From NCBI GenBank assembly GCA_964016885.1, contig OZ024741.1, positions 121,830,001-121,894,000 of the forward strand: a stretch of 64,000 nt of DNA. Reading direction: 5' to 3'. The notes under the pieces are model-generated. The model had not been told where the DNA came from and did no database searches. It worked only from the letters and a program-made list of their open reading frames with translations. This stretch comes from Eledone cirrhosa (lineage: Eukaryota). The translations under genes and the position numbers were made by a program. Positions 17,908 to 40,634 of this stretch are shown one piece after another. Every line of letters begins with the position of its first letter. Position 1 is the stretch's first letter.

Positions 17908-18050
17908 TGAAAGAAGTTTCCGATTCCTATAGTGTGGGTGATATTTCCGTTCATCATCCACATCTGCAACACGATGTAAAAACGCTCTATCTTAGTAAAT
18001 TGACTAAAAGAGAGGATGGTGAATCTGCGAGACTAAGAGGAAATTCCTTT
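17908..18050 (+). CDS. Host gene exon B1 (module copy 1)
   Basis: tttatttcag| ... |gtaagt; (V)[47 protein letters not shown]. Phase 1 to 0; paralog at 32591. Confidence 0.75.
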
Positions 18051-18977
18051 GTAAGTACAGTTTTGTATTAATAGGTAAAAACGTCAGTAGAAAATAAATA
18101 GAAAATGGGTTCAAACAAGTTCAAATAAGTAGAAAATTGGTTCAAGCATGAGAGATGGAAACAAAGTAAGCAAATTAAAAAAAACTAAACACGTGGTTCA
18201 CATGAAATATGCACATAAAATACAAACAATATGTGTATAGTGAAAATATTTAAAGTGAAAATATCAAGCAGCTGATTTAGAGCCGAGTCTGTTCTGAAAC
18301 TGTTTTTGTTCTATAGGAGCCCCAGCGTGTATCGCTGACCATTGTCCGCCGGAATGCTTTTACGGTCTTGTCCACGAGGCGCAGCCCTAATACCGCCACG
18401 CCCACCGCCTAGTGCCGATCACCCTCATTCCTCCCATTTTTCTAGATCCCTTGCCTTTACCTTCCTTTTCCGTTTTCATAACCATAGAAGACACTTGTAT
18501 TTTTATAATAAAACATTTATAAAGTTCTTATTTTATTAAATATATTAGTGGAGCCATGTTGTCAATAATGATTGCAATAGCGTTGAATATATCTAACGTT
18601 TCGAGTCTAACATTGATATGTCGTATAGACGAGGGTTTTTATATATGTGAATAATCATTAAAATTCTCTAACTCTCTCGTTCTTTCTCTGCCCTCGCTAA
18701 GTATGTGTACTCTTTCTTCAACCCTTATGTATGTTTTCTCTGGATTTCTCCTTAACTCTCTCTTTCCTCCAGTCTCTATATAATATCAAGTTTGTCATCA
18801 AACATCAGACCAATCAGTCAACCAGCATATAGGGTTAAAGAGAAGACAATTGCATCTTTTATTTTCTTCTTCCTTTGATGTGGACACAGCATGGCTGATT
18901 GGTCAAACAGTTGACTCGTATATATATATATATATATATATATATATATATATATATATATATATATATATATATAT

Positions 18978-20672
18978 ATTAAAATAACAGATTAAAGTTT
19001 AAGCAAAGAATCGCTGCTTTCACCCATAACGGGATCTTCTGATACTAAAAAAATCAATCTGTGAACGCAGAAGTAAATATTTCGAAAAACGTTACAACCA
19101 AAGGAAGATAGGAAGACGATACTTTGGTTCGTGGAAACGTTCCCAGGCAAAGAACGGAAAAAAACGAAGATAATACGTCATTATTTGGATCAGTAAAAAC
19201 AATTACACGCAAAGATAAAACCACGTTTATGGTATAAATGAAGTCGTAGACTAATATTCTATTAGGTGGTTCGTGGAGACGTTCTCTGGCAATGAACGGA
19301 AAAAACAAAGATAATACGTCAATATGTGGTGCGATGAGAACAATTACACGCAATGACAAAACCACGTTTATGGTATAACTGAAGTCGTAGACTAAAATTC
19401 TATTTAGGAAACCGAATGATTCTCGGCTTCAGAGTTAAGAATAATGTAAATAAATTACAGAGGTAATTGAAATCAACAAAAATTAAATATATACATGCGC
19501 GCATCCATATACGTACATACACATGCATACGCGAAAACACCCGCCATGGGTATGCAAATACAAGCACGTGCACAAAAAAACACGCACATACAGAACCCAC
19601 GCAACGCCTGCACCCGCACACATACGAACGTATACACCAAATACACATAAAAATATATATTAAAAAAAATATATATATATGTGTGTGTATACATATAATT
19701 ATATAAACGTATATAAATATACACACATAAATACGTATATAACACACGCACACACATACCTACATGTAAATACACATATGTTCGGAGACGTATGTCAACC
19801 AAAACACAAAGTACACATATACACACACACCCTACATACGTGCGAATCCGCATACTCACACAGACGCAAAACTCGCGTATACACATAACCATATGCACAT
19901 GTACCAGTATATATAATATAATATATACGCCTATAACATATACAAGCAAATATACGTACGAGAAAGTATACGTACCTTCACAAAACATCCAGGTAATATA
20001 TACTTGCCTATACAAATAAGTAATGGTATAAACATAACATATACTTAGCTACCACATCAAGACGTAAAATATCCACGTATAATTCATACTATCCGTTAGG
20101 GCATAATGTGGGGCTGTATTCTTAACTCTGAAGCCGAGAATCATTCGGTTTCCTAAATAGAATTTTAGTCTACGACTTCAGTTATACCATTTACGTGGTT
20201 TTGTCATTGCGTGTAATTGTTCTCAACGCTCCACATATGACGTATTATCTTCGTTTTTTCCATTCATTGCCAGAGAACGTCTCCACGAACCACCTAATAG
20301 AATATTAGTCTACGACTTCATTTATACCATAAATCTGGTTTTGCCTTTGCGTGTAATTGTTTTTACCGCTCCAAATAATGACGTATTATCTTCGTTTTTT
20401 TCCGTTCTTTGCCTGGGAACGTTTCCACGAACCAAAGTATCGTCTTTCTGTCTTCCTTTGGTTGCAACGTTTTTCGAAATATTTACTTCTGCGTTCACGG
20501 ATTGATTTTTTTAGTTTCAGAAGATCTCGTTAAGGGTGAAAGCAGCGATTTTTTGCTTAAACTTTAATCTGTTATTTTAATAAATATTGCTCTACGGTTC
20601 TTATATATCTGATATATATTTATCCTTATCGAGCCCTCTTTGGATTTTCTCTTCAAATTTATTATTATTACT
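18978..20672. mobile_element. Fold-back element family B
   Basis: ~465-bp inverted arms 18978-19443 / 20117-20582, each with an internal ~140-bp tandem duplication; tail 20583-20672; (TA)n on both sides. Termini recur at 37647-37756 and 56225-56316. Confidence 0.9.
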
Positions 20673-20748
20673 ATTATATATATATATATATATATATATA
20701 TATATATATATATATATATATATATATATATATATATATATATATATA

Positions 20749-37312: not shown

Positions 37313-37984
37313 TAATCATTAAAATTCTGTAACTCTCTCGTTCTTTCTCTGACCCCGCTAAGTATGTGTACTTTTTCTTCAACCCTTATGTATATTCTCT
37401 CTGGATTTCCCCTTTACTCTCTCTTTCCTCCAGTCTTTATATCATATCAAGTTTGTCATCAAATATCTGACCAATCAGTCAACCAGCATATAGGCTTAAA
37501 AAGAAGACAATTGCATCTTATATTTTCTTCTTCCTTTGATGTGGACACAGCATGGCTCATTGGTCAAACTGTTGACTCGTATATATATATATATATATAT
37601 ATATATATATATATATATATATATATATATATATATATATATATTTATTAAAATAACAGATTAAAGTTTAAGCTCTACGGTTCTTATATATTTGATATAT
37701 ATTTATCATTATCGAGCCCTCTTTGGATTTTAGTCTTCAAATTTAATATTATTACTATATATATATATATATATATATATATATATATATATTATAAAGA
37801 GTCGGGACCCAACTGTTATTGAAACAGCAAGAGCTCACTCATCGGGTGCCCACTCTTTATAACATACCCATACTGTACTACTCCAAATATGGAGTAATTT
37901 GCTGAGTGATGGTCCAAGTAGTTTTAAACTGGTTCTATCCTGATATATATGTGCGTGTGTGTGTGTGTGCATTATATATATTTA

Positions 37985-40390
37985 AATATTATATATATCT
38001 TTGATAGGTTTTGGCCAGTATTAGCTCAGGCCATGTCTAGCTTAATTGCCCGACCTAGCGAAGTCTTTTAAATCAAGATTAGGACATCATGGCGCACTCA
38101 AGTAGATAATTATTGTTTACGGAGACATATCCGTGTGTAGGTGGTTTATCTGGGATTTCTTGGCGGAATATGTCCAAAGACGTTTTCAATATTATGCGAT
38201 CTGTTTCTGTTTTAATGTGTTTTGGTGTAATGTTAAAGAGAGCTGGACCGGTTGAGGTGAAATAAATGTGTCGTAGTGTTGTTATGAGATGCGAGTTTGA
38301 CTTTTGTTGTGGGCGGATAGCACGGCGCCCAAACCTTAGGTGTACTTTAAAGATTATGCCAACATCATTTGGGCAATGTTGATGGAATATTTTCCACATC
38401 ATGCAGACCATGTAGCGCTCACTACGGTGTTGGAGAAATTGGAGTTTTAGCTTTTCTTGTCGACCCCAGAAGTCAAGACCTGTCATGCCATTTATCTTGT
38501 TTGGTTTGTGATTTGACCTTTGAGGTGCTTCAACTTTCATAATACTTTGTTTCGTGGACAACATTATCGAAGGTGGGGTCGGATAAAAGTAGAGAAGAGA
38601 AGGATATGGTTTGAATATCTCTCGACTGGAAAGTTATGAAAATCCTGGAAAACATTCTGCGGGCCATGTCAACTTTGCTATCTATATGAGTGGCCCAGCT
38701 TAAGTTGTTAGCAACAATTTCTCCCATGTCTCTGTTGTTGTTGGAAGCCACAAGAATTTCACGTGAAGTAAAGGAGTATGGGTGTTTCAGTGCATCCCCC
38801 TTTTTCAAAGTAGATTAATTCGAATTTATCCTCGCTCAGAAGCATTTTGTTCTTTTCTGTCCCTTGGATACCATTATGTGGATCTAATTGAAGGCATGTC
38901 CTGTCACCCAATCCATTGACAACCATCTGTAGCTTGGAATCATCTGTAAAGATTCTTATATTGCTGCGCTTGATGACGTCAGTAATGTCATTTATATAAA
39001 TAATGAAAAGAAGTGGGTCCAACACAGTGCTTTGTGGAACGCCACTACTGATTTTGGCTGGGCTTCATTGTATTCCTTCGACTGCAACATGTTGGGCTCT
39101 CTTTGTCAGGAAACACTTCATCCATTTCAGTAACTTTCCGGAGCGACCAATGTTGGATAGTGTTATCAGTAGTATGTTGTGTTCAACCCTGTCAAAGGTC
39201 TTCTGAAATCAAGGTAGGTGGCATCAGTGTTGGAACCCTCTCCCAAAGCTCTTAAAATGCCATCAAAGTGATGTAGGATTACGGCACCCATATTGGTCGG
39301 AGTTCAGCAGATTGTTGCTTTCAAGGAAGTGAGTTATTTGTGATATCACCACCCTTTCAAATACCTTACAGATAAGGGAGGTGAGTGAGATTGGATGGTA
39401 ATTCACTGCAAGGGACTTGTTTCCCTTTTTGAAAACTGAGTCAACAGACTGGGACAGAAAGTTTTCAGGTATATAGCCAGCGTGCAGTGAGTTCCTCTAC
39501 AAAATAGCTTGAGGAGATGCAAGTTGGTGTCGGCACAACTTCAGGACATAACCAGGGATCATTTATCTTGTTTGTTTTGTGATTTGACCTTTCAGGTGCT
39601 TCAAGTTTCATAATACTTTGTTTCGTATAGGGTACCCACAGTGGACAACATTATTCAAGTGGGGTCGGATAAAAGTAGAGAAGAGAAGGATATGGTTTGA
39701 ATATCTCTCGACTGGAAAGTTATGAAAATCCTGGAACACATTCTGCGGGCCATGTCAACTTTGCTATCTATATGAGTGGCCCAGCTTAAGTTGTTAGCAA
39801 CAATTTCTCCCATGTCTCTGATGTTGTTTGAAGCCACAAGAATTTCACCTAAAGGAAGGGAATATGGGAGTTTCAGTGCATCTCCTTTTTCAAAGTGGAT
39901 TAATTCGAATTTATCCTCGTTCAACAGAATTTTGTTCTTTTCTGCCCATTGGATACCATCATGTAGATCTAATTGACGGCATGTCACCCAATCCATTGAC
40001 AACCGTCTAGAGCTCGGAATCATCTGCAAAGATTCTTATGTTGCTGTGCTTTATGATGACAGTAATGTAATTTATATAGATAATAAAAAGAAGAGGACCC
40101 AAAACTGCTTTGTGGAACGCCACTACTGAATTTAGCTGGGCTTGATTGTACTCTTTGATAGTACTCCAAATACCTTAATGATATGAGATATGAGTGAGAT
40201 TGGATAGTAATTCACTGCAAAGGACTTGTTTTCCTTTTGGAAAACTGAGACAACAGACTGGGACAGAAAGTTTTTCAGGTATATAGCCAGCGTGCAGTGA
40301 GTTCCTCTACAAATTAGCTTGAGGAGATGCAAGTTGGTGTCGGCACAACTTCAGGACATAACCAGGGATCCTATCGGAACCTACTGCTGA
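37985..40390 (-). mobile_element. Two tandem CR1/L2-type LINE pieces
   Basis: PLLFIIYIND and IFTDDSKL RT motifs (38759-39025); the second piece (39560-40390) is near-identical to 21520-22340. Confidence 0.8.
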
Positions 40391-40591
40391 ATTGTGTTTA
40401 ACTTCATTTATTTGGAGTCTATGCTTGTTCCACAAGATTCTATTTATTTTTCAATGGGTTTGCAAAATAAATAGAGATGAAAATGTATGAGTTAGATAAA
40501 AGATAACATTTTAGAGCAGCTTCGTGCTATGTTGTTTACACTATATGTATTTATTTATCTTTATCTTTTCTTTCCATATTTAAAAACAAAG

Positions 40592-40634
40592 AGCAAGAAA
40601 ATACAGATGATTCAATCGCTTTCCAATGGTGAAG
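40592..40634 (+). CDS. Host gene exon C2 (43 nt, module copy 2)
   Basis: aacaaag| ... g|gtagat; SKKIQMIQSLSNGE. Phase 0 to 1. Confidence 0.65.

Follow-up and report, generated by a model that had tools for sequence, protein, structure and literature searches.

How can two copies of a pair of exons, lying within one gene, have come to differ far more in their coding parts than in their introns? The question is raised by a window of 64,000 nt (the whole stretch of DNA that was analysed) from Eledone cirrhosa (GCA_964016885.1, contig OZ024741.1, positions 121,830,001–121,894,000 of the forward strand), in which a two-exon cassette, B–C, is tandemly duplicated inside its host gene with frame and splice sites intact. 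The features are as follows, in window coordinates:

261..394, plus strand: RasGEF core exon, phase 0 to 2; 64% by tblastn to the O. bimaculoides protein; called from sequence and frames.
2247..3141, plus strand: exon A, the end of the RasGEF core with a degenerate helix H, then the start of a long insertion; phase 2 to 0; called from splice sites and motif loss.
5181..5253, plus strand: exon X, phase 0 to 1; from a candidate scan.
17625..17885, no strand: (AT)n microsatellite, where copy 1 appears to have its 5′ breakpoint; inter-copy homology begins just past its end.
17908..18050, plus strand: exon B1, 143 nt, phase 1 to 0; the more basic, His-richer copy.
18051..20899, no strand: B-proximal intron of copy 1; diverged from copy 2 by 7.1% (73 differences in 1034 aligned sites).
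21004..24714, no strand: C-proximal intron of copy 1, exon C excluded; 43 of 2198 aligned sites differ from copy 2 (2.0%); putative conversion tract.
22551..22593, plus strand: exon C1, 43 nt, phase 0 to 1.
32367..32563, no strand: (AT)n/(AG)n microsatellite where copy 1 meets copy 2.
32591..32730, plus strand: exon B2, 140 nt, phase 1 to 0; acidic, nearer the O. bimaculoides exon.
40592..40634, plus strand: exon C2, 43 nt, phase 0 to 1.
54501..54820, plus strand: exon D, the last exon, encoding the C-terminal helices of the RasGEF domain that the insertion splits; 55 of 100 residues identical to the orthologue; generic RasGEF tails align with it.

The host, an octopod gene, encodes PH-like domains together with a RasGEF domain, and its O. 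bimaculoides orthologue is XP_014768911.1. An earlier note on this DNA had called the host GEF-like, and the Pfam profile PF00617 (RasGEF) bears this out, with 88 bits in the orthologue and 23.7–23.8 bits for the window exons in a genome scan (gathering cut-off 23.1). As in the CDC25/RasGEF family (RalGPS1, RasGRF1, SOS, Epac2), the core matches by both sequence (RalGPS1, E = 8.8e-9) and model. The AlphaFold model is that of the O. bimaculoides orthologue and is MSA-guided (a single-sequence run, at pLDDT 31, was uninformative); it contains the CDC25 helical fold including the C-terminal helices, with pLDDT of about 90 in core and tail. Its Foldseek matches are CDC25 domains, and RasGRF1 (2ije) fits the model core with an rmsd of 2.4 Å over 167 columns. 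Unlike in that family, the helix-H hot-spots are replaced and the domain is split by an insertion of about 400 residues. Predicted confidence is below pLDDT 50 nearly throughout orthologue residues 685–1033 and about 90 in residues 1071–1114, the exon D region; against the RasGEF profile, 2 of 100 shuffles score as well as exon D. The insertion is loosely conserved throughout (25% identity between E. cirrhosa and O. bimaculoides), exon A sharing with the orthologue 40 of 56 residues in the core and 53 of 213 in the insertion. Relaxed constraint in the insertion is real, because interspecies conservation there is only 25%.

Thr935, Glu942, and Asn944 of Sos are conserved residues of the RasGEF helix H and hairpin (PMC8623491). 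At the corresponding alignment columns, as inferred from Sos numbering by spacing, the residues of the window protein are found in 1, 0, and 3 of 91 homologues, respectively, and a Gly that 86 of the 91 have and an Asp that 67 have are also substituted. Judging from these substitutions, the catalytic helix motif has probably been lost and exchange activity is likely gone. The host gene clusters with invertebrate proteins that have the same degenerate helix, and its product is probably an intracellular pseudo-GEF from an uncharacterised invertebrate subfamily. Literature searches, with supplements outside their scope, found no publication on the host gene by accession or on octopus RasGEF/testis, nothing on a rapidly evolving RasGEF under positive selection in molluscs, and, on cephalopod or octopus exon duplication, only titles unrelated to this gene. 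Atlas hits, all under 0.9, serve as no more than leads.

All four cassette exons have AG/GT ends and the phases 1 to 0 (B) and 0 to 1 (C). The earlier statement that frame, splice sites, and phases are intact therefore stands for these exons, but it had overlooked exon X, which is required because the frame into B1 breaks without it; exon X with intron read-through aligns with the tail of O. bimaculoides isoform X2 (10/29). The cassette begins and ends in phase 1, so an extra copy keeps the frame, and in-frame splicing is possible with the two copies together, with one of them by itself, or with B1 joined to C2. The E. cirrhosa genome holds two copies; O. bimaculoides has a single cassette in the same slot, XP_014768911.1 containing one B-like segment of 48 residues, equal in codon count to B1, and one C-like segment between X and D. 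In global alignment with the orthologue, B2 gives p 0.0005 and B1 p 0.07, and the match of exon C is weak (5–6/17). B1 has 7 Lys + Arg and 4 His, versus 1 and 1 in B2. No inter-copy homology was found upstream of the microsatellite at 17625..17885. With two copies here, one in O. bimaculoides, and no variant of exon B1 in one individual (three of three runs, each a set of contigs from a single sample), the proposal of a hypervariable, expandable repeat is not upheld. The contigs of these runs contain no splice joint at B1, which has no bearing on expression. Exon C as a paralogue of exon X was considered and is unsupported (alignments p 0.10–0.33). Donor copies elsewhere, acting by cDNA-mediated or ectopic conversion, are likewise unsupported, DNA searches returning two copies only and a B2 protein search one.

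That two haplotypes were set in tandem by the assembly is scarcely credible. The contig depth of copy 2 is lower (5.8–9.4 versus 9.0–12.1 for copy 1, as relative depths only), as such an artefact would have it, but neither the window nor a 264-kb region contains any N, and the copy-1 contigs differ among runs of the one sample at 18417 and 18682. Since the base at 18682 is not that of copy 2, copy 1 already has two alleles.

As the earlier note had claimed, divergence in the exons exceeds that in the introns; the excess is 5- to 12-fold (B 35% versus 7%; C 24% versus 2%), and the spike stops at the splice sites. B1 and B2 differ at 48 of 138 nt, with 19, 21, and 8 differences at codon positions 1, 2, and 3. 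The earlier hand counts are reproduced for 13 of 46 shared residues and three identical-residue codons differing synonymously in B and for 8 of 14 shared residues in C; codons with a single first- or second-position change number 20 rather than about 19. A-to-I editing as the driver is rejected, A/G pairs accounting for 12 of 58 differences, with no excess. It is very improbable that one cassette consists of unspliced, decaying pseudo-exons or that the exon calls are wrong. Such a reading could appeal to the window copies being known from DNA alone, to the A-rich stretch ahead of the AG of the C acceptor, and to the poor C–orthologue match. Against it, all splice sites are intact and no stop has arisen despite 48 changes, whereas 48 random substitutions in B create one in 70% of trials; eight or fewer third-position changes are expected from such substitutions with P 8e-4, a codon-position bias that cannot come from non-coding DNA, and the exons diverge more than the introns.

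The substitutions in B point to positive selection. By NG86, dN is 0.60 and dS 0.15 (bootstrap P(pN ≤ pS) 0.0007); by maximum likelihood, dN is 0.60, dS 0.17, and omega 3.46 (CI 1.19–18, p 0.024), a modest significance from two sequences of 46 codons. The Fisher test of nonsynonymous versus synonymous changes gives p 0.003, and the omega test summed across all 47 gap positions gives p 0.014–0.035 under three frequency models. The dN/dS comparison advised earlier thus favours selection on B, but it is sensitive to the central codons: without codons 12–21, the ten around the indel, omega falls to about 2.1 (1.9–2.4) and significance is gone (p 0.19, range 0.13–0.24). Relative to the 7.1% intron rate, nonsynonymous differences in B are far in excess (P ~1e-22), whereas the excess of its dS is not significant (P 0.07–0.19). 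For B and C together, dS is 0.18–0.20, roughly double the rate of the B-proximal intron (P 0.02–0.06), so the duplication may predate the intron-based estimate. Acceleration on the B1 branch, by hand count from the alignment, is 4 versus 1 sites and not significant.

Exon C behaves differently from B in this comparison. C1 and C2 differ at 10 of 42 nt (24%), more than the 7.1% intron rate predicts (P 6e-4), with omega 1.28 (CI 0.26–15, p 0.79), dS 0.26, and dN about equal to dS. The exon sits inside a conversion-like tract: its flanks show 6 differences in 221 sites and 4 in 207, and the ~140 nt preceding it contain no mismatch. The claim of diversifying selection is accordingly not supported for C, and the outcome is one that the earlier note had named as refuting it. 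Its description of the introns as nearly identical fits these flanks, but not the intron just after B, where 34 of 451 sites differ (7.5%) with six gaps.

Intron divergence is uneven (7.1% near B versus 2.0% near C, Fisher p 3.8e-12), which points to gene conversion. The evidence for conversion in this single two-copy species is indirect, consisting of the intron heterogeneity and one shared allele: at site 18417, a copy-1 contig carries the copy-2 base in two of three runs, which is compatible with ongoing conversion but could equally be the ancestral state. A two-version LINE fragment in copy 2 (38489–39560, 8%) was left out of the dating because it probably represents an older tandem fragment that copy 1 has lost; the LINE segment 24800–25713 (8.5%) was likewise excluded.

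An old duplication with neutral or relaxed exons, whose introns conversion has repeatedly homogenised so that the exons are older rather than faster, is rather unlikely as a full account. It suits exon C (omega 1.28, dS 0.26, flanks at 2%), the uneven introns, the poor conservation of the insertion across species, and the vanishing significance of B without its central codons; yet it expects a dS of about 0.6 in B, where 0.15–0.17 is observed, the confidence interval of omega for B excludes 1, and it must explain why conversion spares the exons, a sparing that is itself selection. Divergence that declines with distance is expected around a balanced site. The fall from 7% to 2% away from B would thus agree with B1–C1 and B2–C2 being former divergent alleles under balancing selection, joined on one chromosome by unequal crossing-over. 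This origin is quite improbable, as no B1 variant appears in the one individual (3/3 runs) and conversion after the duplication yields the same gradient.

The data probably reflect a cassette duplicated in a likely dead RasGEF gene, with positive selection on B and introns homogenised by conversion, above all near C; they fit best the known pattern termed a peak of divergence. On this account, the duplicate would have arisen at the (AT)n microsatellite, leaving time for ~7% intron divergence, and the in-frame extra cassette would have permitted the alternative splice forms. The cassette lies where the insertion, predicted to be disordered, interrupts the RasGEF domain at its hairpin, and it probably offers a surface for binding a partner; whichever copy was redundant, more likely B1, may have been selected for a changed binding preference. 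Positive selection would then push the amino-acid sequences of B1 and B2 apart while conversion homogenises the introns, chiefly around C, and exchanges overwriting the exons would be selected against or halted at the exons, so that C stands out as an island of 24% divergence within a tract of 2%.

A more specific role, in which B–C is a second, displaced catalytic hairpin (helix H + I) acquired or re-evolved within the pseudo-GEF, is unlikely. Exon B weakly resembles the lost helix, and the tests are mixed. In one profile register, B1 scores 11.8, the O. bimaculoides B segment 7.4, and B2 1.2 bits, while among 3297 relative windows none reaches 5; a hairpin HMM gives p 0.10 for B2C2 and 0.065 for the orthologue, pairwise tests give p 0.11, 0.11, and 0.02, and the B–C region is coil in the orthologue model. 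Exon shuffling from a canonical RasGEF was considered as a source; in a scan of 11 loci with motifs in six, no donor directly follows the INF motif in the hairpin exons of L032, L037, L051, and L053, nor in L050. If B–C were such a hairpin, the duplication would have produced two alternative hairpins, tuned by positive selection to different GTPases and exchangeable through splicing or conformational swapping.

Comparable patterns occur in other systems. According to one report, the Teshima–Innan model and human red/green opsin exon 5 exemplify a peak of divergence between duplicates that undergo gene conversion, the exon diverging beyond conversion-homogenised introns as here, which is read as selection guarding coding differences (PMC3924837). 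Unlike those whole-gene duplicates, the cassettes lie within one gene, B itself shows dN > dS, and the case is known from sequence alone. Mouse zonadhesin D3p is also a tandemly duplicated two-exon segment, in a gene reported to be under positive selection (PMC1325057); no sequence relationship is claimed. In that sperm protein a folded, extracellular VWD fragment is present 20 times, whereas here there are two copies, predicted to be disordered and probably intracellular, and a germ-line role for the cassette protein is only an analogy. Dscam likewise has paralogous exons diverged inside one gene; dozens of them are spliced in a mutually exclusive manner, and positive selection between paralogues was reportedly not found (PMC3236188). 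Unlike exclusive splicing in Dscam, the cassette phases permit inclusion and skipping.

The divergence pattern is thus already known, and the cassette is a sharp case of it within one gene, whose octopod product is uncharacterised and probably intracellular. That amino acids have diversified so strongly in this host points to a partner or a conflict and marks 46 codons, and the host draws attention to a RasGEF subfamily of invertebrates, so far unstudied, in which the catalytic helix is degenerate. Should B indeed be a mimic of the lost helix, the gene would be a rare pseudoenzyme regaining and diversifying a catalytic element by exon duplication.

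Self-comparison of the window shows a direct duplication of ~17.9-25.7 kb against 32.6-42.2 kb, which is interrupted by mobile-element insertions, and upstream of each B exon the homology between the copies sets in directly behind an (AT)n microsatellite. Because exon A, at the end of the RasGEF core, finishes in phase 0 and B1 starts in phase 1, another exon is needed between them, and X supplies the phase change:

5181-5253, exon X
17908-18050, exon B1 (copy 1)
22551-22593, exon C1 (copy 1)
32591-32730, exon B2 (copy 2)
40592-40634, exon C2 (copy 2)

The cassettes are phase-symmetric, and 5 of the 16 possible inclusion patterns are in frame (none, B1C1, B2C2, B1C2 and all four). 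A DNA search finds only two B copies in this genome. The Octopus bimaculoides orthologue (XP_014768911.1) has a single, ancestral-type cassette between X and D (the last exon), made up of a 48-residue piece whose last residue is Phe and a second piece rich in Lys. B2 aligns to the former with p 0.0005 and B1 with p 0.07; the match of C to the orthologue's segment is weak. RefSeq models rest on transcripts, and we infer that the B and C copies in the window are spliced as exons. The 12 intronic nucleotides before each C acceptor (22539-22550; 40580-40591) are in frame, Lys-rich and match the C segment of the orthologue; a 12-nt downstream shift of the acceptor may have occurred. Translation of 5254-5282, where the intron after X begins, gives a peptide similar to the end of O. 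bimaculoides isoform X2 (10/29 residues). This suggests a conserved short isoform that ends in read-through after X and has no B, C or D.

Two haplotypes of one locus, placed in tandem during assembly, could imitate such a duplication, and the depth of copy-2 contigs is somewhat below that of copy 1, as compared between the copies only. However, the region is free of sequence gaps. One sample sequenced in three runs gave contigs in which B1 lies within a single 311-nt piece with zero differences and copy 2 forms contigs of its own. Between runs, the copy-1 contigs disagree at 18417 and 18682, and at 18682 the other base is not that of copy 2; copy 1 therefore holds two alleles by itself, which makes the haplotype explanation unlikely.

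An earlier note claimed that the duplicated exons diverged faster than their introns, and its counts are reproduced: B1 and B2 share 13 of 46 residues, C1 and C2 share 8 of 14, and 3 identical-residue B codons differ synonymously, while the ~19 B codons with a single first- or second-position change become 20 on recount. Replacement changes are in excess in B, where differences by codon position are 19/21/8, NG86 gives dN 0.60 and dS 0.15, and omega under a codon model is 3.46 (CI 1.19-18, p 0.024; p 0.014-0.035 on summation across all 47 positions of the gap). Without 10 codons around the indel, omega is 1.9-2.4 (p 0.13-0.24). In C, omega is 1.28 (p 0.79). Intron divergence is uneven, with differences at 73/1034 sites near B vs 43/2198 near C (p 3.8e-12), counts that leave out three LINE-derived, probably paralogous segments at 5-9%. 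The dS of B is compatible with the 7% intron rate, and that of B and C jointly exceeds it marginally (P 0.02-0.06). Under relaxed constraint alone, exons should diverge no more than introns, which B does not fit; conversion alone would give dS close to dN, which C fits but B does not. Both selection on B and gene conversion are therefore probably required. B1 is also more basic than B2 (7 vs 1 Lys and Arg), and by hand count on the alignment B2 alone agrees with the orthologue at 4 sites and B1 alone at 1, which is not significant.

Repeats and element remnants in the window are as follows:

10116-11232, 14835-15418, 18980-20579, 45970-46560 and 48502-49876, elements whose terminal inverted repeats (114-464 nt) are nearly perfect
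6347-6854, open reading frame remnant
36385-36951, open reading frame remnant
33490-33655 and 34705-35353, short tandem arrays (37-nt and ~170-nt units) within copy-2-specific insertions

The two remnants may stem from a Helitron helicase of PIF1 type and from a DNA-transposon protein. In copy 2 a LINE fragment occurs twice in tandem (38489-40370; the versions are 8% and 1% from copy 1) and copy 1 has a single version, probably through a 1071-nt deletion between direct repeats.

The closest named protein relatives of the window are Octopus proteins, and the host, with a 3.0 Gb genome, is therefore an octopod. Among 1.84 billion representatives, 829 proteins match at E<=0.001 and 5 at E<=1e-30, three of the latter named as Octopus. 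XP_014768911.1 (1114 aa) is the best orthologue; mapped on 264 kb of neighbouring DNA, it recovers the RasGEF core exons and a large first exon ~26 kb upstream of the window, but no exons for residues 443-490. Every host-gene exon located is an open reading frame, and exon D (54501-54820) has a 57% match to O. vulgaris CAI9727601.1. That model skips the B/C region and looks like a fusion of two tandem genes. The tandem paralogue lies 43-127 kb upstream of the window (contig ~121702700-121787250; loci L007-L015, L002 and L006), shares the PH-PH/RasGEF layout, and is orthologous to O. bimaculoides LOC106868253; its insertion is one ~1000-codon exon, and no B or C exons were found. Modelling of the O. 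bimaculoides orthologue of the host protein predicts a PH-like fold for the N-terminus, for which an Atlas hit is a lead only.

The Pfam RasGEF match ends at profile position 160/181. The window protein and both O. bimaculoides paralogues carry other residues at conserved columns of helix H, part of the catalytic hairpin, including those columns that by spacing match Sos Thr935, Glu942 and Asn944, hot spots according to PMC8623491. In a quick tree built from 58 of 64 rows (six lacked the motif and were dropped; two rows mis-cut and one very long), 31 rows with all 21 canonical-helix sequences stand apart from 27 degenerate-helix rows (SH-aLRT 98), among which are the octopus pair and proteins from a nemertean, a sea star and a beetle. 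An uncharacterised invertebrate RasGEF subfamily combines a degenerate helix H with a 100-350-residue insertion before the C-terminal helices. In an MSA-guided model of the orthologue, residues 685-1033 (including X, B and C) have low confidence, B-C is coil, and the D helices are confident. The degenerate helix and this low-confidence stretch suggest that the host gene is probably a pseudo-GEF and that a long disordered insertion sits at its hairpin. A CxxC-x3-C motif in exon D (~54620-54665), kept in both paralogues and three species, is a possible metal site.

In its conserved core, B is similar to the lost helix-H motif, although we consider it quite improbable that it is a displaced catalytic helix. 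A helix-H profile from 59 canonical sequences, whose columns were picked after the first match, scores B1 at 11.8, the orthologue at 7.4 and B2 at 1.2 bits in one register (shuffle p 0.0003, 0.001 and 0.015); of 3297 windows from 21 subfamily relatives, none reaches 5 bits, and a chance window of the orthologue attains 6.1 bits. MAFFT aligned B1 and B2 onto helix H unprompted, and a profile comparison was better than 100/100 column shuffles. A hairpin HMM is significant for B1C1 only (0 of 2000 shuffles as good, against 201 for B2C2 and 130 for the orthologue), with insertion windows reaching 7.6 bits against 9.3, and pairwise comparison with five hairpins from the same genome yields p 0.11, 0.11 and 0.02. 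No intron position matching canonical hairpin genes was seen, and the motif is absent from the tandem paralogue.

The duplication may have been associated with the microsatellite; selection would have favoured an altered binding surface in B, and later gene conversion would have spared the exons. The B/C pattern is the same as the peak of divergence described for opsins (PMC3924837), and the architecture is akin to the zonadhesin two-exon cassette (PMC1325057). A literature search found no paper on this gene.
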